Source of the DNA: Dehalococcoidia bacterium
GTDB taxonomy: Bacteria > Chloroflexota > Dehalococcoidia > Lucifugimonadales > UBA3495
Length of the DNA stretch: 64,000 nt
NCBI GenBank assembly: GCA_965220625.1
Contig: CBDCQN010000003.1
Span: 1,994,186 to 2,058,185 of the forward strand
Reading direction: 5' to 3'
Numbering within the stretch: position 1 is the stretch's first letter; each line of letters begins with the position of its first letter. The notes under the pieces were generated by a model that saw nothing but the letters and a program-made list of their open reading frames with translations, was not told the origin of the DNA and made no database searches. Of this stretch, positions 12,074 through 63,658 are shown piece by piece. The translations under genes were made by a program, and so were the position numbers.

Positions 12074-12272
12074 GAAGTCGGAAGCCGGGATGACTCATGC
12101 CGTGGGTTCAGCCATCGTCCGCCGACAATTAGGTGAGCCTGCCCGCCAGCCGGGGCATTCCTTTTGGAGACCCCCGGTGCTATGATTGCCCGGTTGTTTT
12201 CATCTTGCCCGGTCTCATTTGTCCACCACGAATCCAGACGTTGCACTGACGTCAAGGGAGTACCCCCACCCG

Positions 12273-12893
12273 ATGACCACCGACGCGGTCCAGCTACAAC
12301 TCGAACCCAGGGAACTGCTTCGCAAAAAGGTGGGCCGTCTGCGCCGCGCCGGCATAGTGCCGGTGCACCTGTACGGTCCCGGGATTGAGCCCCGCGCCCT
12401 GCAATGCCCCGCTCCCCGTCTCATCCAGGCCCTGTCCCTGGCGGGAGCGAGTACTCCGATTTCCATAAAAATCGAAGGTGAGTCCGGTACCCACTTAGCC
12501 TTCGTCAGGGAAATCCAGTGGGACCCCCGGCGGGATGACCTCGTCCACGTCGATCTGTTGGCGGCGGACGTCGGCCGCCTGTCGACAGCCCAGGTCACCA
12601 TTGTCTTGGTGGGTGAGTCCTCCGGAGCCCAGTTGGCCGGCGGGAACGTGGTGCAGCAACTGCGCACCATAGACGTTCAAGCTCTGCCTCTGGACATGCC
12701 GGCCCAAGCCGAAGTAGACCTCTCCACGCTCACCGACCCGGATGGCACTATCAGGGTGGCGGACCTGGGTCTGCCGGCCAACGTAACGGTGCTGACGGAC
12801 CCCGAAGAGGTGATAGCCCGCATCGACGTGGCCCGCGCCGGTGCGATTGACGGAGCAGAAACCGCACCGGCCGACGACCAGCCCGGCGGATAG
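12273..12893 (+). CDS. rplY: 50S ribosomal protein L25 / general stress protein Ctc
   Basis: RELLRKKVGRLRRAGIVPVHLYG and HVDLL...VTIVLVGES match the Ctc-form L25 layout. ATG 12273 preceded by GGGAG. Confidence 0.85.
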   Translation: MTTDAVQLQLEPRELLRKKVGRLRRAGIVPVHLYGPGIEPRALQCPAPRLIQALSLAGASTPISIKIEGESGTHLAFVREIQWDPRRDDLVHVDLLAADVGRLSTAQVTIVLVGESSGAQLAGGNVVQQLRTIDVQALPLDMPAQAEVDLSTLTDPDGTIRVADLGLPANVTVLTDPEEVIARIDVARAGAIDGAETAPADDQPGG

Positions 12894-12925
12894 CAAACGG
12901 CAAGTCATCTTATGGAGACGGCGTC

Positions 12926-13693
12926 GTGTACCTAGTCTACATGGGCCAGTCGGGCGATACCGGCAACAGCACCGCAGACCCTTCCCAACCCCACCAAGTC
13001 TACACCGGCCTGCTGGTCCATGAGACCCAGGTCGTATCCATGACCGGGGAGTTCGACGCCCTCTGCCGCCGCCATTTCAGTTATCCCTTGGGCGAATCGG
13101 GAGCACCCCGGGGGATCCGTCCGGTCGATGTATTCCACGGCTTGCGGCACTACACATCATGGCCCCAAGCGAAGCGCAATGAGTTAATTCAAGACTGCCT
13201 GAACATAATGGTCCGGCGGGAATCCCCTGTGATCGCCGCCTACATCGACAAGCGGGAACTGGCCGACGCCAAGGCCGCCGGCGACTCCCCCAGCGCCCTC
13301 TGGAAGAATCCTACTGAACCTATTGTCAGCCGGTTCCTCTTTGCCCTCAACATGTTCTTGGACGAGATGAGCATGTCCACCCTGTCCCACGACCAGATCA
13401 TGGGGGGGCAACTCCCAATTTCAGATTTCGCCTTGGTGGTGGCCCAGCAGCGGGACTCGGTGGAGCCCCGTTTCTTAACTGAATTCCTGCGCTCCGAAGA
13501 CGGGCAGGACGCCACCGCCATGCTGAGCAACTTCTGCTTCGTTACTCCGGAGTATTCAGTGGGCACACAGCTCTCCAACCTCTGCGCCTACTTCGCCCGG
13601 CGCTGGCTGCAGCACCCATCCCGTCCCCAACCCTATTTCGAAGCCCTCCGGGACAACCGGGTAATCCAGGTCATTTACCCTGTAACCGTCTAG
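12926..13693 (+). CDS. DUF3800-like protein with substituted signature residues
   Basis: Layout YLVYMGQSGD...FHGLRHY...VIAAYIDKREL...SVGTQLSNLCAY parallels DUF3800 (yiDESG...QlADl). DE is replaced by GQ and AD by SN. Confidence 0.4.
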   Translation: MYLVYMGQSGDTGNSTADPSQPHQVYTGLLVHETQVVSMTGEFDALCRRHFSYPLGESGAPRGIRPVDVFHGLRHYTSWPQAKRNELIQDCLNIMVRRESPVIAAYIDKRELADAKAAGDSPSALWKNPTEPIVSRFLFALNMFLDEMSMSTLSHDQIMGGQLPISDFALVVAQQRDSVEPRFLTEFLRSEDGQDATAMLSNFCFVTPEYSVGTQLSNLCAYFARRWLQHPSRPQPYFEALRDNRVIQVIYPVTV

Positions 13694-31611: not shown

Positions 31612-32169
31612 ATGACTACGAGAACCAAATCTATCACCGCCGACGAACTTCTGGCTATGCCGCGCGGAGATGGCACACGCTATGAGCTTATCCGTGGAGT
31701 TTTGATTCAGAAAATGCCTACCGGTACTCCTCACGGCCTCACCGTCAGCAATACAGACTTTGTCTTAAACCACTACTGCCGGTCCACCGACTATGGTGAT
31801 ACAGTTGCCGCAGACCCTGGTTATCTGCTGGACCGGGACCCCGACACCGTTCGCGCGCCAGACATTGCGTGGTTCGCTCCAGGGAGGCTTACTTCGGTTG
31901 GGCCTGGGTTCCCGGAATTAGCCCCTGACCTGGCGGTGGAAGTCAAATCACCCAGCAACTCCAATCCCGAAATGGCCGCCAAGGCGGCAATGTGGCTCAG
32001 CTACGGTTCGCAAGAATCGTGGGTGCTCGACCCGGAGCACACCGTAGTCACGGTCTACCGCCCAAACGCCGAGCCGGTAACGCTGACAGAAGACGACACC
32101 CTTGACGGCGGCGACTTGTTGCCCGGCTTCACCTCCCCAATCTGGCAACTTTTCCGCCGCCGCCGCTAG
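31612..32169 (+). CDS. Uma2 family (DUF820) PD-(D/E)XK endonuclease-like protein
   Basis: YELIRGVL...APDIAWF...PDLAVEVKSPSN...SWVLDPE..VTVYRP are Uma2 motifs. ATG 31612 after GAGGTG, with tgctagaat upstream. Confidence 0.8.
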   Translation: MTTRTKSITADELLAMPRGDGTRYELIRGVLIQKMPTGTPHGLTVSNTDFVLNHYCRSTDYGDTVAADPGYLLDRDPDTVRAPDIAWFAPGRLTSVGPGFPELAPDLAVEVKSPSNSNPEMAAKAAMWLSYGSQESWVLDPEHTVVTVYRPNAEPVTLTEDDTLDGGDLLPGFTSPIWQLFRRRR

Positions 32170-56485: not shown

Positions 56486-57211
56486 CTACTGAGCGTCGAA
56501 AATCAGGGCGCGGACATCGAACACGAACCCCGGCAGTTCGGGCGCGCCGGTCAACTGCTCCGGGTCGTCCAAGGTGATGGGTTCGGCGCCGGGGCGGTAG
56601 ATATGCGCCTGCCGCCGGAAGGGATCAATGAGCCAGCCCAGCCGCCCGCCGTGGGCGATATATTCTTCCATCTTGCGCCGGGCCGCCGACGGACGGTCAT
56701 TGCGCGACATCACCTCCACCACGAAGTGAGGGCAGAAACGCAGCAGCCATGTCCCGCCCGAAGCCGCGTAGTCCGCCAGTTGTTCCGGGGACAGCCAGGC
56801 CGCGTCGGGAGCGTAGCGCGCACCGTTGGGCAGTTCGACGCCCAGCCGCGAGCCGTGGACCTCACCACCATGCTCCCGCGCCCAGACGTACAATTCCGCG
56901 CCGAATGTCAACTCAAATCGCGAACCCAATATGCCCGGCATAGGCGATACCAGCAACCTTCCCTCTGCATCCAACTCCAGCTTGCCCGCCATTGTCCTGT
57001 TGGCCTGGTTGAACTGGACCAGCCATTCGTTAAGCCGTTCGCCAACGTAGCCGGCCTCGGCCAATACTTCCAGGACCGGCCCGAACTCCAGGCAGATGGG
57101 CAGGGACAGGGGGTCCCGCTCAAGCCGGGCCTCATCGGATGCCATTGCCGGCCCATGTATATCGGGTTTGGCAACCATTTCGCTCACCGTCCTTACCGGC
57201 CAGTATGCCAC
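56486..57211 (-). CDS. Uma2 family (DUF820) PD-(D/E)XK endonuclease-like protein embedded between hsdS and hsdM
   Basis: LLVSPMPG..., YAPDAAWL, PHFVVEVMSRND, GWLIDPFRRQAHIYRPG and LPGFVFDV. Lies 3 nt after the hsdS stop and 8 nt before the hsdM start. Confidence 0.75.
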   Translation of the reverse strand: MAYWPVRTVSEMVAKPDIHGPAMASDEARLERDPLSLPICLEFGPVLEVLAEAGYVGERLNEWLVQFNQANRTMAGKLELDAEGRLLVSPMPGILGSRFELTFGAELYVWAREHGGEVHGSRLGVELPNGARYAPDAAWLSPEQLADYAASGGTWLLRFCPHFVVEVMSRNDRPSAARRKMEEYIAHGGRLGWLIDPFRRQAHIYRPGAEPITLDDPEQLTGAPELPGFVFDVRALIFDAQ

Positions 57212-57214
57212 AAA

Positions 57215-58738
57215 TCACCGCGTCACCTTCCTCTTGCCGCGCCTCCTGGGCTTGCTCTTGACGGTGGCCAACGCCTGCGCTTCCGCCTCGCGCTCGGCCC
57301 TGATTCGCTCCAGGAGCGCGGACGCCGGCTCGTCGCCGGGGTCCTGAGGGACGAGCTTGCCGGAGAACGCCTGCTTGAGGATGCTTTGGCGCAGCCGCTC
57401 CGCCCGCGCCAGGCTGGCCTCCACGGCGGCCTCCGCCTGCTGGACGACCGACAGCCGCCGCTCCACCTCCGCCACAATGCGGCGCTGCTCAGCCAACGGC
57501 GGGAGGGGGATGGGCATCGTGTGAATCAGCGACAAGCTGACGTTATTCTGCCCCGCTGACGATGCCGCATTCTGTTCGATGAAAGCCCTTCCCAACTGAC
57601 TCGTTGAGTATATGTGAAACCACTTCGGTATGAACTCGGCTTCCATCAATCGAAACCGGAGAAGGTACGATGCGAAACCGTGGTACGGCTTCAAATCTGA
57701 ATGCACCACCGCTGTCTTGCCGACGAGTCGGACGCTGCCGTTAGTCCGGCACATGAGGACATCCCCTTTGGCGAGGGACGTTTCAGAGTCAATCTTGACA
57801 GGCTGGATGGCGTACTTGATGTCCGCAAGGTCGATCTCACCAGCGACTATGTTCGGGATACGAAGTACGGGCACCCCAGTTGCTTCGTAACTGCACTTTA
57901 CGGATGTGCCGTATTCGCTTCGGGCAAGTAGCTGCTCAACCACCGCCCACGCCCACCCCTCCGGCAATTCCGGCAGGGTGGAGGTGGCCGGTGCGGAGGG
58001 ATCCTTGTACTGACCCCGCCGCTTCTCCTGGGACTCCCAGCGGGCGCGGCGCTCGGCCAGGATGCGCTCCAGCAGGACGCCGGCGGGTTCGTAGTCGCGG
58101 TCCTCGGAGCGGGCCAGAGCGGCCTCGGTGGGGACCAGCCGGCCCTCGCAGGCGGCCTTGAGGACGCTGGCCCGGTAGCGCTTCAGGTTGGCCCGCGCCC
58201 GCCGCAGCGCGGCAACGGAGGCGTCCAGCCGCGTGAACTGCGTTTCGATTTCGGCGACGATGCGGTGTTGCTCGGCGAGGGGTGGAACGGGAAATGGGTA
58301 GTTCGAAAAGGTGTTTCCTCTAACTCTCATCAGAGAGCCACCAACTCCTGATGCGTTGGCCGAAAGAAAATCTCTAAAGGCATCTAGCCGCATGTAGTAC
58401 GCAAGAAAATGAGAAAATACATCATCTACTGGAGAAAATCCAAGCCATTCAGTTGACGCTATCTTTTGGTGGTCCGAATACTCACCAACCACCCAGGTGC
58501 GATTTATTCGAGGGTTAATTTTGCAAAGGAGAACAGTATCGTTGTCAACAGTTTGTTTGCTTGAACCGATTTCACCCCCAGATACAATTTCGGGCCTTCC
58601 TTCTGAGAAACTGGGAACGCTATAAAGCTCAAATGTCTGTCGAGGCGTTTTGCTAGGGGTGATGGACTTGGATTTGTCCCGGCGAACATAGCCGAGAGTA
58701 GTAATCGCCCAGCCTGCGGGGAAGTCTGCCTGGGTCAT
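57215..58738 (-). CDS. hsdS: type I restriction-modification specificity subunit (two TRDs)
   Basis: Two conserved spacers, LAEQHRIVAEIETQFTRLDA and LAEQRRIVAEVERRLSVV, separate two variable target-recognition domains. Confidence 0.9.
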   Translation of the reverse strand: MTQADFPAGWAITTLGYVRRDKSKSITPSKTPRQTFELYSVPSFSEGRPEIVSGGEIGSSKQTVDNDTVLLCKINPRINRTWVVGEYSDHQKIASTEWLGFSPVDDVFSHFLAYYMRLDAFRDFLSANASGVGGSLMRVRGNTFSNYPFPVPPLAEQHRIVAEIETQFTRLDASVAALRRARANLKRYRASVLKAACEGRLVPTEAALARSEDRDYEPAGVLLERILAERRARWESQEKRRGQYKDPSAPATSTLPELPEGWAWAVVEQLLARSEYGTSVKCSYEATGVPVLRIPNIVAGEIDLADIKYAIQPVKIDSETSLAKGDVLMCRTNGSVRLVGKTAVVHSDLKPYHGFASYLLRFRLMEAEFIPKWFHIYSTSQLGRAFIEQNAASSAGQNNVSLSLIHTMPIPLPPLAEQRRIVAEVERRLSVVQQAEAAVEASLARAERLRQSILKQAFSGKLVPQDPGDEPASALLERIRAEREAEAQALATVKSKPRRRGKRKVTR

Positions 58739-58986
58739 CCGCCGGTCTCAATGGCGACCTGTTGCGACACATCGAGGGCCGGGATTTCCACCTCCACGGC
58801 GGAGTAGTTGGGCTGAGGGACGGTATCGCCGTCCTCCAGCATCCCTTCGACGTGGAAGTTGGCGGCTTCTTCAATAAGGTTACGGGTTTCCTCGAAGGTG
58901 TCGGCGGCGGCTATGCAGCCGGGCAGGTCGGGCAGGTGGGCCGAATAGCCGTTGCCGGTCTTGCAAATTATTGCCACGTATTTCAT
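58735..58986 (-). CDS. HicB-like (UPF0150, RNase H-fold) antitoxin-type protein without DNA-binding domain
   Basis: MKYVAIICKTGNGYSAHLPDLPGCIAAADTFEE. The stop overlaps the hsdS start (ATGA at 58735-58738). Start trimmed to ATG 58986. Confidence 0.7.
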   Translation of the reverse strand: MKYVAIICKTGNGYSAHLPDLPGCIAAADTFEETRNLIEEAANFHVEGMLEDGDTVPQPNYSAVEVEIPALDVSQQVAIETGG

Positions 58987-59407
58987 CGGTAATCCCTCGT
59001 CCATAGAACGCCGCCGCGCCGCGCTCAGGTAGCTGCGGACGCCAACTGCGCAGCCGCGTTGAAGGCAGTTTCCGAAGGGTCTGATTGTGCGGGTCCACCT
59101 CAACTCCGATTGATTCCAGAGCGGTTACTCCCAGCAGCGGTCCCGCGTCCGGCGGGCCGCAGACGATGGTTGCACCAGCGATTTCTCCCATAAACTCGAT
59201 ATCGCCGGTGGTGACATCCATTCTGATTTCGCTGCCGTCCGCCAAGCCGTATACCCGCTGGCCTTTAGGGAACAGGCCAAGGGCGTCAAGGTGTTGCTTC
59301 GGCACGAGGCAGTCTACGGCTCCGGTATCCACCAGGAACAGACCTTCCCAAGTCCGTTCCGGTTCGGCCGGGTTGCGTATAGTGGCCGTTACGTGTGTGA
59401 TACCCAT
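58880..59407 (-). CDS. retropepsin-like (clan AA) aspartic protease
   Basis: LFLVDTGAVDCLV (D-T-G active site) and LLGVTALESIGVEVD. An Arg-rich 3' tail overlaps the next gene by 107 nt. Confidence 0.65.
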   Translation of the reverse strand: MGITHVTATIRNPAEPERTWEGLFLVDTGAVDCLVPKQHLDALGLFPKGQRVYGLADGSEIRMDVTTGDIEFMGEIAGATIVCGPPDAGPLLGVTALESIGVEVDPHNQTLRKLPSTRLRSWRPQLPERGAAAFYGRGITDEIRGNNLQDRQRLFGPPARPARLHSRRRHLRGNP

Positions 59408-59432
59408 TTCAACTCCCGAATAATTCTCCTGC

Positions 59433-59666
59433 TCAGGATTTAGCCAGAAGCTCCATCAGCAGCCGGTTGCGCTCAACGCTGGCATAGTAGCAGGCCATAA
59501 CTTCGGGGCGCACATTTTCCGGGAGCTTGCTCTTGAAGTAATCCCACATGGCCTCTTCCAAGACTTCCTCGGAATCCCGGCCCTCACGCCGGGCAATCTC
59601 GCGCATCGCGGCCAGCAGCTCCGGTACAGCTTGGCCGGTAAACTTTTCCCGTGCGGCGACCATCAC
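59433..59666 (-). CDS. ribbon-helix-helix-like small protein (antitoxin-type)
   Basis: FTGQAVPELLAAMREIARREGRDSEEVLEEAMWDYF fits a strand-helix-helix (CopG/RHH) pattern. Confidence 0.45.
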   Translation of the reverse strand: MMVAAREKFTGQAVPELLAAMREIARREGRDSEEVLEEAMWDYFKSKLPENVRPEVMACYYASVERNRLLMELLAKS

Positions 59667-59704
59667 ATATCTCCTGTCAATTATCTACCCGTCTCAACGG
59701 CAAT

Positions 59705-59932
59705 TTACTCGCTCGTGATGGGGCGCTGGACTTCCACCTCGATGGCTGTGCTCACGGGTTCCGGGATGGCCTCTCCATGCTCGGTCATCAACTCAACGTG
59801 GTCCACGACCGCCCCAGTGATGAGCGAAACAACTTCCTCCCTGGTCTCCCCCGCGGCGACGCAGCCCGGCAGGTCGGGGATATAGGCGCCGTAGCTGGTG
59901 GGTCCCCTTTCGATGATGACGGTGTATTTCAT
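59705..59932 (-). CDS. HicB-like (UPF0150) antitoxin-type protein, N-domain only
   Basis: MKYTVIIERGPTSYGAYIPDLPGCVAAGETREE. Paralog of 58735-58986. Confidence 0.7.
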   Translation of the reverse strand: MKYTVIIERGPTSYGAYIPDLPGCVAAGETREEVVSLITGAVVDHVELMTEHGEAIPEPVSTAIEVEVQRPITSE

Positions 59933-59944
59933 CGGGTACTTCTT

Positions 59945-60125
59945 ATCTAAGGAACCTCTGAATAAGCCAGCGACATGGCTGCGAAAGCCGTGAATCCGGA
60001 GGGTAGATTAGGGAACTCAGCTATGCAATGAGCGCCGGCACCCCCATCCTAACCTTCCCCCGCGACGGGGTAAGGGTCTTGTTCAGAGGTTTTCTAATCT
60101 ACCCCCGCCTGCGGGAAGGTCTTGT
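59945..60125. repeat. repeat-dense spacer with interleaved inverted repeats and a GEG/PSP-type hairpin
   Basis: The reverse complement of aacctctgaa (59953-62) matches ttcagaggtt (60082-91). ggtagattag (59999-) pairs with ctaatctacc (60094-). ggtcttgtt is duplicated. Confidence 0.55.
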
Positions 60126-60129
60126 TGTA

Positions 60130-60375
60130 TCACCTGCTGAACAATTCCCGCATCAACTCGTCTTGTCCAATCTCCAGATATACAGAAACTTGCCCAATAA
60201 TTTCTTCCAATGTGCCAACTCTAACAGGGTTATGACGCGGAACAGAGACATAATGTTCATAGCCCATAATGGTTGAGACCAGTCTCATGTGGCTACCCCT
60301 TTGCCGGGTAAGGTTGTAGCTGTATTTCCGGCGTAGCAGGGTAACAAGCTCCATACCGGATAGATTCCGAGGCAT
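60130..60375 (-). CDS. hicA: HicA family mRNA interferase toxin
   Basis: LSGMELVTLLRRKYSYNLTRQRGSHMRLV...VSVPRHNPVRVGTLEEII. ATG 60375 lies 2 nt after the upstream stop. Confidence 0.8.
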   Translation of the reverse strand: MPRNLSGMELVTLLRRKYSYNLTRQRGSHMRLVSTIMGYEHYVSVPRHNPVRVGTLEEIIGQVSVYLEIGQDELMRELFSR

Positions 60376-60377
60376 TC

Positions 60378-60782
60378 TCACACGGGTATGACTTCTTTTT
60401 GGACCAGGTGTATCCGAATCGCCTGGGGCGCTTCGCCGTCGTCGAAGTGGCACAGCACCGCGTCCCGCATCATGTAAATCAATTCATCCCAATCGTCGCC
60501 CTGGGTGATTATGCTCTGCCCGACGGCACTGGCTGAGTAGCCGCCGTCGGGGGATTCCCTTACCCGGAAAACTATTTCCGTGTCAGGATTACCGAGGGAT
60601 CCCTGCTTTCCGGCTTCCAGAACTTTCTCTTTGAGAAACTCCAGCCTTCCGGCTTTGATGTCCTCTTGAAGCTGACGGTCCCACCGCTCCCAGTCGTGGT
60701 CCCATACCCACTTCATCAAATCGGAGAATTCAGCTTCGGGTAAAGCCAGGATATCCTGCGCAATCTCCGCCACAGTTCTCAT
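60378..60782 (-). CDS. antitoxin-type fusion: N-terminal addiction-module-like helix domain plus C-terminal HicB-like fold
   Basis: N-terminal ILALPEAEFSDLMKWVWD...WDRQLQEDIKAGRLEFL. C-terminal EIVFRVRESPDGGYSASAVGQSIITQGDDWDEL. Immediately precedes hicA. Confidence 0.55.
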   Translation of the reverse strand: MRTVAEIAQDILALPEAEFSDLMKWVWDHDWERWDRQLQEDIKAGRLEFLKEKVLEAGKQGSLGNPDTEIVFRVRESPDGGYSASAVGQSIITQGDDWDELIYMMRDAVLCHFDDGEAPQAIRIHLVQKEVIPV

Positions 60783-60832: not shown

Positions 60833-63658
60833 CTACCCCGCCAGTGCGAGGTTCAGCTCCTCCAGCAGCGCCGCCAGCCCGTCGCCGAACACCTCGTAGG
60901 CTCGGCCGATGCCGCCGCGCTGAGCGAAGGGGGACAACTGGAGGTCGCCAGGGTCGATGCTGACGCTGCCGGCGATGTGGTCCTTAATGTCATTCAGCCA
61001 CTGGCGCTGCTCGTCGGTGAAGGAGCGTCCGGCGATTTCCTGGGTATCCAGCCAGCCTTGGAACCGTTCCTCAACACGCTCGGCGAAGGGCGCCAGTTCC
61101 TCATCGTTTCCAATGGCGTAGCGCACCAGCGACACAATGTCGGCCATCACCCGCTGGCTGGAGCCGCGCACCCGGGACTGCTCAAGCTGCCGGTAGGCGG
61201 CCCACAGCCGTTCCGGAGTCCAGGAGCGGGGCGGGCTTGCCAGCGAATCGGCCAAGGCCCGGATTTCCGCATAGCTCAACCGCTGGCTGTAGGGCCGCTG
61301 GTACAGCACTTGCAGCGCGGTTATCTCGTCCCGGTTCTCCTCGATGTACTCCCGGAAGGAGCGGGTGAGCGCGTCGGCCTCCGTCCCGGAGAACTCCGCC
61401 CGGACCACCGTATCCTGGGATACCGTGTCGATGGTCTGCTCGTAGGCGCGGTGGGTATCGATCAGCCGTTGCCGCAGTTCCGGGTTGGCGGCGAAGGGCC
61501 TGGCCGCCGCATCCAGCAGTTGCCGCGCCGCTTGGGCTATGGCTTCTTCCGGCGGGTCGTCCTGCCCGGTGGCCGCCCGCGCCGCGTCCAGGGCGGCGTC
61601 GGGATCGGTGGCGGTGAGCAGCTCCCTGACCAGCTCCTTCAAGGTAGAGCCTCCGGCCACGTCCTCCACCGCCTGCCGGTCTTGGGGCGAGAGCCGCCGG
61701 TCAAGGCGGGCGAGACGGCTGGCCAGTGACGACAGGGTGTCAGGCTCACGGTCGCCCATGGCCACCATGTCCAGCAGCTTGTCGAAGGCCACCGACGGGT
61801 GGCGGTCCAGCGAGTAGGACTCGGACAGCTCGCTCTCGGTGACGCCCACCGCGTCCACTATAACGAAGCGGTCCTTGCCATCGGCGTCGGGCGTAACCGC
61901 GTTGAAGTCGGTGGCGGAGATGGTGCGGACGCCGCGCCCCTTCATCTGCTCGAAGAAGTTGCGGCTGCGCACGTTGCGCATGAAGAACACCACCTCCACC
62001 GGCTTGATGTCGGTGCCGGTGGCGATCATGTCCACGGTGACCACGATGCGGGGGTTGAAGCTGTTGCGGAACTGCGTGATCAGGTCCTCGGGCCTCGCCC
62101 CGGTGGTGCGGTAGGTGATCTTCTGGCAGAAGTCGTTGCCCTTGGCGAACTCCTCCCGCACGATGTTCACGATGTCGTCGGCGTGGCTGTCGTCCTTGGC
62201 GAAGATGATGGTCTTGGGCACGTGCTGGCGTCCGGGAAAAATCTCGGTCGTTACCCTGTCGCGGAAGGTCTGGATGACCGTGCGTATCTGGTCCGTTGCC
62301 ACCACGTCGCGGTCGAGTTGGCCGGGCGTGTAGGTCAAATCCTCGTCCAGTTCCTCCCAACGCTTATCGCGGGTGCGCCGGTCGCGCCGGTCCACCTTCA
62401 GGCCGGCCTCGATGGTGGCCCCTTCCTCCGTGATCTTCGTCTCGATGCGGTAGACGGTGTAGCCCACGTTGATGCCGTCGGCCACCGCCTGCTGATGGTT
62501 GTACTCCATCACCAGGTTCTGGTTGAAGAAACCGATGGTCTGCTTGGAGGGCGTGGCGGTCAGCCCGATGAGGAAGGCGTCGAAGTATTCCAGCACCTGC
62601 CGCCACAGGTCGTAGATGGAGCGGTGACACTCATCGGTGATGATGAAGTCGAACTCCTCGATGGGGAAGTTCCGGTTGTACTCCACTGTTTGCGGAGAGG
62701 GCCGGGTCGAGGCCACGTCATAGCCGGAGGGCTCGTCCATCTCCGGGTCCAGCTCCTCACCCTTCAGCATGGAGTAGACCCTTTGGATGGTGGCGATGCA
62801 CACCCGGCTGACCGGGTCGATGCTGGCGGACTGGAGGAGCTGGACGTTGTAAAGCTCGGTGAACTTCCGTCCGTCGCCGGGCACGGTGAAGCCTTGGAAT
62901 TCCCGGAGCGTCTGCCGGGCCAGGTTGCTGCGGTCGACGAGGAACAGCACCCGCCGGGCGCCGGCGTGCCGGATGAGCCGGTACACCTGGTTGCAGGCCA
63001 TGAACGTCTTGCCGCTGCCCGTCGCCATCTGCACCAAGGCGCGCGGCCGGGCCTCGGCCAGCGACTGTTCCAGGTTCCGGATGGCCTGCCCCTGCACCGT
63101 CCAGAGATTGGAGTCGTCCAGCGGCGGCATCGCGGTCAACCGGCGACGCAGGCTGCGATGGGTCCGATAACCCCCGCCGCCAGCGTCCGCTATCAGTTCC
63201 GGCCCATCCGGCGACGTTCCAACAGAGGCGTCCCGCGCACCCAGCCACCCGGCCAGCGTTTCCGGAGTATGGAAGGAGAAGACGTTCCTGCTGCGCGGCT
63301 GGGGATCGAGGCCGTTGGTAAACCGGGTCTCAACACCGGTGCTCTCATACAGGAACGGCAGGGGGCGCCTGTGGGCGGGCAGGTTGTCGGGAAGGCCCGC
63401 GCCGTACTTCTCGGACTGTATTTCGACGCCGGTAAGAGAGTGCCCCTCGGGCTTGGCTTCCACTACCCCTGCCGCCTTGCGGTCGACATAGAGAAGGTAG
63501 TCTGCCCCTCCATGACCCGGCTTCAACGAAAACTCCCGGACCGCTACTCCGTTGCTGGCGTACAGGTTGATGGATGAGGCGTCCTGCACCGCCCACCCGG
63601 CTTGCTCCAGCATCCTGTCTATATTGACCCGAGATTGTCGTTCCGGTGTCATCGCCAT
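60833..63658 (-). CDS. hsdR: type I restriction endonuclease subunit R (DEAD/DEAH helicase-nuclease)
   Basis: 941 aa. N-terminal nuclease region, Walker A MATGSGKT, DEAH-box ITDECHRS, and helicase C motifs. Confidence 0.95.
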   Translation of the reverse strand: MAMTPERQSRVNIDRMLEQAGWAVQDASSINLYASNGVAVREFSLKPGHGGADYLLYVDRKAAGVVEAKPEGHSLTGVEIQSEKYGAGLPDNLPAHRRPLPFLYESTGVETRFTNGLDPQPRSRNVFSFHTPETLAGWLGARDASVGTSPDGPELIADAGGGGYRTHRSLRRRLTAMPPLDDSNLWTVQGQAIRNLEQSLAEARPRALVQMATGSGKTFMACNQVYRLIRHAGARRVLFLVDRSNLARQTLREFQGFTVPGDGRKFTELYNVQLLQSASIDPVSRVCIATIQRVYSMLKGEELDPEMDEPSGYDVASTRPSPQTVEYNRNFPIEEFDFIITDECHRSIYDLWRQVLEYFDAFLIGLTATPSKQTIGFFNQNLVMEYNHQQAVADGINVGYTVYRIETKITEEGATIEAGLKVDRRDRRTRDKRWEELDEDLTYTPGQLDRDVVATDQIRTVIQTFRDRVTTEIFPGRQHVPKTIIFAKDDSHADDIVNIVREEFAKGNDFCQKITYRTTGARPEDLITQFRNSFNPRIVVTVDMIATGTDIKPVEVVFFMRNVRSRNFFEQMKGRGVRTISATDFNAVTPDADGKDRFVIVDAVGVTESELSESYSLDRHPSVAFDKLLDMVAMGDREPDTLSSLASRLARLDRRLSPQDRQAVEDVAGGSTLKELVRELLTATDPDAALDAARAATGQDDPPEEAIAQAARQLLDAAARPFAANPELRQRLIDTHRAYEQTIDTVSQDTVVRAEFSGTEADALTRSFREYIEENRDEITALQVLYQRPYSQRLSYAEIRALADSLASPPRSWTPERLWAAYRQLEQSRVRGSSQRVMADIVSLVRYAIGNDEELAPFAERVEERFQGWLDTQEIAGRSFTDEQRQWLNDIKDHIAGSVSIDPGDLQLSPFAQRGGIGRAYEVFGDGLAALLEELNLALAG

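Follow-up and report, generated by a model that had tools for sequence, protein, structure and literature searches.

A Uma2-family gene lodged between hsdS and hsdM as probable accessory cargo of a type I restriction–modification operon in marine Dehalococcoidia

We analyzed a 64,000-nt stretch of DNA (termed the window) from the genome of a Dehalococcoidia bacterium, a marine member of the Chloroflexota, in which a 241-codon open reading frame (ORF; 56486–57211, minus strand) lies between the hsdS and hsdM genes of a type I restriction–modification (R-M) operon. Comparison of this locus with its relatives suggests that the insert is an autonomous embedded accessory cassette, consisting of a leader and a 230-aa ORF for a predicted Uma2 nuclease, which is probably cargo of the operon and not a subunit of the restriction enzyme. 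The locus is one more case of accessory genes inside type I R-M operons, a 'guilt-by-embedding' kind that has already been described, and the way in which type I R-M enzymes are understood is unaffected by it. Its main value is that of a tractable system for assigning function to a Uma2 protein: some operons of this lineage carry the gene and others do not, the gene in turn is found inside and outside the operon, and the insertion point is exactly known. This natural experiment makes a role of Uma2 in defence, toxicity or stabilisation testable by the swap of a single cassette.

The assignment of the ORF to Uma2 (DUF820) goes back to a first-pass annotation, which had named the failure of a profile search as grounds for abandoning it. 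The search returned PF05685 with 97.1 bits (E = 1e-27; Pfam cut-off 27) over ORF residues 66–233, counted from the upstream GTG and corresponding to profile positions 3–171 of 172, and the motifs noticed originally (PDAAWL, FVVEVMSRND, GWLIDP...IYRPG and LPGFVFDV) are all present in the translation. NCBIfam yielded no model for the window Uma2 protein. More than 100 database orthologs, about 230 aa long, cover 95% of the ORF. The GTG at 57211, at which the longest frame opens, was rejected as the start of the gene: the frame is broken in two related loci (L001 and L049), and orthologs as well as database gene calls start at a downstream ATG (MVAKP). Based on the conservation of this ATG in all orthologs and the broken upstream frame in both loci, we delimit Uma2 to 56486–57178, encoding 230 aa. 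The spacing reported initially holds on one side, where 8 nt separate the Uma2 stop from the hsdM ATG, and had to be revised on the other, where a distance of 3 nt after hsdS applies to the longest ORF only; the ATG at 57178 lies 36 nt past the hsdS stop.

Table 1 Features of the Uma2-bearing type I R-M locus and of the second Uma2 copy in the window.
Feature	Position	Strand	Basis or remark
hsdR, 941 aa, EcoAI/EcoEI-like	60833–63658	−	EcoEI_R_C E 6e-42, ResIII E 1e-34; NCBIfam PRK11448 E 6e-111
Small cargo ORFs, ~2 kb between hsdR and hsdS	58735–60782	−	ORF translations read by eye
hsdS, 507 aa, two target-recognition domains	57215–58738	−	Pfam Methylase_S; PADLOC Specificity_I E 2e-98
Non-coding conserved leader, 36 nt, Shine–Dalgarno-like AAGGA	57179–57214	−	hsdS stop to Uma2 ATG
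TGTGGCATACT, 11-nt motif resembling an extended −10 promoter (TGG + CATACT)	57202–57212	−	Ends 23 nt before the ATG
Uma2 (TT1808-type), predicted PD-(D/E)XK nuclease, 230 aa	56486–57178	−	PF05685, 1wdj, ortholog starts
Uma2 stop codon	56486–56488	−	
hsdM, 497 aa	54984–56477	−	N6_Mtase E 2e-66 and HsdM_N; PADLOC MTase_I E 2e-191
Unlinked canonical Uma2 paralog	31612–32169	+	PF05685 E 3e-30; PADLOC PDC-S03 E 7e-14

The surrounding genes form a complete type I R-M system of the EcoAI/EcoEI kind, on which PADLOC and NCBIfam concur, with co-oriented genes for HsdR, an HsdS containing two target-recognition domains and HsdM. The gene order on the minus strand is hsdR–cargo–hsdS–Uma2–hsdM, and the location of Uma2 between hsdS and hsdM was confirmed by the matches to Methylase_S upstream and to N6_Mtase and HsdM_N downstream on the same strand. 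A weak AGG precedes hsdM. Co-expression of Uma2 with hsdM, as had been proposed from the gene arrangement, is likely in view of the shared strand, the 8-nt gap and the ATGA stop/start overlap of both genes in the orthologous loci L003 and L049. No small antitoxin ORF adjoins Uma2 in the 36 nt towards hsdS or in the 8 nt towards hsdM. Uma2 hence lacks the small adjacent cognate antitoxin that characterizes type II toxin–antitoxin systems, in agreement with the 'solo' status of the family, which has been called a 'likely solo toxin' forming paralog cassettes (PMC2701414). Read by eye, the small ORFs between hsdR and hsdS encode a HicA-like, three HicB-like and an RHH-like protein as well as a retropepsin-like protease; in related loci, a called HicB_lk_antitox gene is found directly before hsdS.

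A survey of gene neighbourhoods, of the kind suggested by the first-pass annotation, revealed that the Uma2–hsd linkage recurs in other genomes. Scanning one genome per species, we found 27 loci encoding the 230-aa Uma2 subfamily, all of them in Dehalococcoidia/SAR202/Chloroflexota MAGs. Loci with at least 70% identity (L002–L006) show the same hsdR...hsdS–Uma2–hsdM order, which is absent from those with at most 62%. A reciprocal scan with HsdM yielded 80 loci, which span many phyla and without exception have the order R-S-M. Seven of them, in addition to the window, contain Uma2 between S and M; five of these were already known from the Uma2 scan and two (L047 and L049) were new. At none of the 39 HsdM loci outside the Chloroflexota clade does Uma2 occupy the S/M junction. 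Three further orthologs on metagenome contigs (66–76% identity) all exhibit the succession of S, 36 nt, Uma2 and M. The linkage was thereby found in at least eight SAR202/Dehalococcoidia species plus metagenome contigs, with hsdM either starting 8–45 nt beyond the embedded Uma2 copy or overlapping it by ATGA.

In the Uma2 tree, one branch parts the embedded copies from the copies outside R-M loci, which make up 25 of the 34 sampled members of the subfamily, and the branching order of the embedded copies mirrors the HsdM tree. The single branch and the mirrored order argue for one insertion followed by co-inheritance and against repeated recruitment; the embedded linkage traces to a single insertion event. 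The dN/dS ratios were in the range of 0.20–0.43 for Uma2 and 0.16–0.35 for hsdM at similar dS; by these estimates Uma2 is under purifying selection and has co-diverged with hsdM.

One identical Uma2 protein (P0059) was encountered on at least 15 metagenome contigs (L108–L117), where it neighbours hsdS of 438, 442 or 489 aa and hsdM of 496–504 aa. The same contigs carry IS66/IS110 insertions between hsdR and the cargo and nSTAND3 or SMC-like/AAA_13 genes downstream. Together these features suggest that, at the population level, specificity subunits are shuffled within a defence island. Within one species (L004/L058), a 1.4-kb insertion lies between hsdS and the Uma2 cassette (L058:3860–5233); its only long ORF, of 422 aa, is on the opposite strand and has no Pfam match.

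The view that hsdS and hsdM are normally coupled was corroborated in the R-S-M family, in which the S/M junction consists of a 4-nt ATGA overlap at 29 of 67 loci, with a gap of less than 200 nt at 11 more and of more than 200 nt at 27. The overlap of the hsdS stop with the hsdM start is the ancestral state of this family. Outside the Uma2 clade, inserts at the junction encode an AbiEii-like AAA_21 ATPase, HTH_66 together with DUF433, an NYN nuclease and, twice, Schlafen/AlbA_2, and further S/M inserts comprise DUF3800, Fic/DOC, DUF5131, DUF4357, HARE-HTH and DUF559. No Pfam match was obtained for the inserts of L060 (388 aa), L081 (442 aa), L098 (576 aa), L100 (219 aa), L101 (319 aa) and L104 (193 and 243 aa). 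Likewise, the hsdR–hsdS junction of the window and its relatives contains HicAB-like and other small genes. On this comparison the R-S-M operon is a general landing site for accessory genes; in this one family, many defence-associated genes, spread over different phyla, have the hsdS/hsdM junction as their cargo slot. At L046, a canonical Uma2 (12190–12927) lies about 4.7 kb downstream of hsdM, the S–M junction of this locus being without Uma2.

According to these comparisons, the cassette entered the operon a single time, precisely where hsdS and hsdM ancestrally overlapped by ATGA, in a lineage of SAR202/Dehalococcoidia bacteria. As the insertion would have broken the coupling of S to M, translation of hsdM would now be coupled to Uma2, across the 8-nt gap here and through the ATGA overlap in L003 and L049. 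Uma2 itself would be transcribed by read-through from hsdS as well as from its own extended −10-like promoter.

By the comparative evidence, the R-M system does not appear to need Uma2. In the nearest HsdM relatives of the window (91–93% identity; L028, L029, L030, L039 and L044), hsdS and hsdM show the ATGA overlap and no Uma2. Placing the Uma2 label on the HsdM tree requires 6–7 changes, and a tree with all Uma2-bearing loci in one clade fails the AU test (p = 3e-47). In SAR202 bin87, the system is present in two copies, one with Uma2 and one without (L061, L053). At L001 (7955–8810), all that remains of the R-M genes around an intact Uma2 is the final 24 nt of hsdS and the initial 96 nt of hsdM. 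Free-standing paralogs (L007–L018) have the leader motif and the N-terminal extension of the protein in common with the embedded copies, and their neighbours are genes for a luciferase-like monooxygenase, ketopantoate reductase (PanE) and TPP enzymes; glycosyltransferase, hydrolase and VIT/rubrerythrin genes are the neighbours at L019–L027. As both the extension and the leader are common to free-standing paralogs, they are not R-M-specific adaptations. In addition, we observed that only short fragments of hsdS and 32 codons of hsdM are left at L001, the Uma2 cassette alone being intact, and that IS5-like transposase ORFs and a Doc-like ORF, read by eye, are located just upstream.

These comparisons lend no support to a specific link, physical or functional, between Uma2 and the methylase core, which had been suggested as possible from the placement of the gene. 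Most sister operons lack the gene, among them those of the closest hsdM relatives at 91–93% identity; it outlasts the R-M genes at L001; the sister paralogs that share its N-terminal extension and leader are surrounded by metabolic genes; and many unrelated genes take its slot in other phyla. A functional partnership between Uma2 and the type I enzyme is unlikely, be it with Uma2 as a latent effector held by M2S1/R and freed by a phage block, in the manner of PrrC, or as an alternative nuclease targeted through the methylase core. A partnership would fit the constant spacing of all embedded copies (36 nt from hsdS, and 8–45 nt or ATGA to hsdM) and the co-divergence of Uma2 with hsdM. It would also fit the substitutions that are fixed in the embedded clade relative to the free paralogs, mostly charge changes, at 126, 158, 162, 173, 178, 182 and 190 (GTG numbering), and a dN/dS of about 0.3 maintained inside the operon is compatible with adaptation to R-M. 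However, most sister operons work without Uma2, with S and M re-coupled by ATGA, an intact Uma2 persists after R-M decay, and the extension and leader are shared with free-standing paralogs. The contigs L114 and L117, which keep S–Uma2–M with no hsdR within 10 kb, could be taken as a further sign of partnership, but IS66/IS110 insertions on the R-less contigs explain the loss of R, and hsdR is intact in the window.

The precedent for such a partner is PrrC, an ABC-ATPase/anticodon nuclease that is physically masked by the R-M enzyme at the EcoprrI locus. PrrC is almost exclusively embedded in type I R-M (bioRxiv 10.1101/2024.01.29.577857). Similar to PrrC in EcoprrI, the window harbours a single accessory gene, here for a predicted nuclease, lodged between co-oriented hsd genes. 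In contrast to PrrC, near-obligatory embedding is not observed, as Uma2 resides mostly outside R-M loci (25 of 34 subfamily copies, and 50 of the 51 copies in the genome). The fold of Uma2 is moreover unrelated to that of PrrC, and Pfam, PADLOC and NCBIfam detected solely the Uma2 domain in the window protein, with neither an ABC-ATPase nor an anticodon-nuclease domain. We consider it very unlikely that S–Uma2–M constitutes a functional three-gene unit, in which Uma2 would be an HsdR-independent restriction nuclease or a guard effector triggered by inhibition of M2S1; if true, this would explain the persistence of the module on hsdR-less contigs together with the fixed charge changes around the active-site helix.

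The leader of the cassette is nearly identical in DNA among nine R-M-embedded loci and is not coding, its frame being broken in L001 and L049. Its motif TGTGGCATACT is conserved before the R-M-embedded copies as well as before the non-R-M paralogs L007–L018, about 23 nt upstream of the ATG in each case, and occurs once in the 4.6-Mb genome. The only variants seen were TATATT and CATAAT, both of which are nearer to the −10 consensus. Based on this pattern we infer that TGTGGCATACT acts as an extended −10-like promoter; a standard −35/−10 scan does not call the site, no −35 being present. RNAalifold, applied to the leader as a possible structured RNA, found no more than a 5-bp TGGCA/TGCCA pairing, in which no pair covaries. 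The leader was also considered as a leftover hsdM promoter and rejected as such, given that the Uma2-less junctions contain no relic of it. We further noted that the DNA of TGTGGCATACT and of the first five codons, ATGGTTGCCAAACC (MVAKP), is better conserved than the rest of the gene, and that this holds between paralogs only 55–60% identical in protein. The two segments contain a TGGCA...TGCCA inverted repeat, a candidate promoter, operator or RNA element.

Such a leader could alternatively be the reason for which the insert is kept, with selection acting on an effect in cis: the internal promoter and the new upstream frame would uncouple hsdM from hsdS/hsdR and thereby alter methylase dosage. 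The conservation of an extended −10-like motif, unique in the genome, right after the hsdS stop would be in line with this, as would an hsdM that has lost its ATGA coupling to hsdS and is preceded by a weak AGG. Yet the cassette also persists in places without a following hsdM (L001, L007–L018), and a pure cis role leaves unexplained why the ORF is under purifying selection with catalytic residues conserved over 113 orthologs, so that we regard this explanation as improbable.

According to the favoured reading of an autonomous cassette, Uma2 would be a Mg-dependent nuclease acting alone, which would provide a second layer of defence or, in the manner of a toxin, help to keep the locus. The nearest solved structure is TT1808 of Thermus thermophilus (1wdj), which was retrieved by sequence with E = 6e-20 and by Foldseek, using the window model, with E = 5.5e-16, a TM of 0.77 on the target and 34% identity. 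The top seven Foldseek matches are chains of four Uma2/DUF820-type entries (1wdj, 3ot2, 6okh and 9y1l). At a modest model confidence (pLDDT 58.6), the protein is thus predicted to adopt the PD-(D/E)XK fold as present in 1wdj, 3ot2 and 6okh. Compared to TT1808, it contains about 40 additional N-terminal residues, comprising about 30 predicted to be disordered and a short conserved helix, and it is encoded inside an R-M operon.

For this family, Feder & Bujnicki (2005) described the active site (H/S)-PD-EXX-K, in which the Lys has migrated to the next helix, with Tt1808 representing the S-PD-EXR-K variant (PMC551604). The window protein displays the pattern S-PD-EXM-K, the same variant of Ser, Pro-Asp, Glu-x-(Arg/Met) and migrated Lys, differing by the Met that replaces Arg at the classical Lys position. 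Within 52 sequences, D125 and E155 never vary, and the conservation of K169 reaches at least 90% (numbering from the ATG; D136, E166 and K180 from the GTG), and the catalytic Lys of the window aligns with K130 of Tt1808. The conservation of the D, E and K residues, proposed for checking by the first-pass annotation, extends from the window protein across 113 orthologs, and the predicted catalytic set (Ser, Pro-Asp, Glu-x-Met and migrated Lys) is intact. Both the retained residues and the recurring linkage run contrary to what the first-pass annotation had listed as refuting its proposal. An interpretation in which the catalytic Asp is lost, derived from a His in the PDLVVE string and a Met for Lys, was discarded, as the Tt1808 alignment and the published family analysis (PMC551604) place the catalytic positions elsewhere. 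In the family literature, including PMC2701414 and PMC551604, we found no reported activity for any Uma2 member; the term 'nuclease' is therefore used here on the grounds of fold and motif.

Another possibility is that Uma2 has the PD-(D/E)XK fold but no catalytic or no nuclease activity, binding nucleic acids for instance, and that it is a near-neutral passenger of the operon. This reading could account for the Met at the classical Lys position, the His for the Asp of the common 'PDLVVE' string and the lack of published activity for any Uma2 protein, but has little probability considering that Met, Leu or Val at this position is the family norm (PMC551604), that TT1808 is likewise without 'PD' before the Glu strand, that D125, E155 and the migrated K169 are kept, and that a dN/dS of about 0.3 argues against neutrality.

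Genes embedded in type I R-M, BREX, DISARM and Hma have given rise to 145 'phage defence candidates' (PDCs) in PADLOC, each PDC model being derived from a cluster of which one or more members sit inside a BREX, DISARM or type I R-M system (bioRxiv 10.1101/2024.01.29.577857). The window gene appears to belong to the kind listed there as candidate PDC-S03 (Payne et al. 2024 preprint), with which it shares being single, embedded and on the same strand between hsdS and hsdM. Its protein differs in falling into a divergent TT1808-like subfamily, restricted to Dehalococcoidia/SAR202 as far as sampled: whereas the PDC-S03 HMMs match canonical Uma2 proteins of the same genome over their full length (6.8e-35, up to 118 bits), the match to the window protein is weak and partial (22 bits, E = 1.9e-5).

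An embedded DUF820 gene is also known from Synechocystis 6803, where the hoxEFUYH hydrogenase operon encloses sll1222 beside a TA pair and a stabilising role has been proposed (PMC4963859). As in the window, a Uma2/DUF820 gene is inserted there between genes of an unrelated multi-subunit operon, in the company of toxin–antitoxin modules and in an order conserved in a relative; the hox operon, in contrast, is a metabolic and not a defence operon, and stems from a different phylum. Uma2 nucleases were furthermore found beside solitary dnd clusters (PMC6435447), and proliferation and horizontal spread of the family have been described (PMC551604).

The genome contains 51 matches to PF05685, 49 of which are above the cut-off, in agreement with the family expansion that had been concluded from a second, unlinked copy in the window; this paralog (Table 1) is indeed Uma2. 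To our knowledge, Uma2/DUF820 is among the largest prokaryotic protein families without demonstrated function, and some cyanobacteria contain hundreds of copies. Some 30 of these 51 matches align to profile positions ~35–156 only and are located in open frames of 240–390 aa; these partial-profile matches may represent a distinct, larger Uma2-related family that is expanded in this genome.
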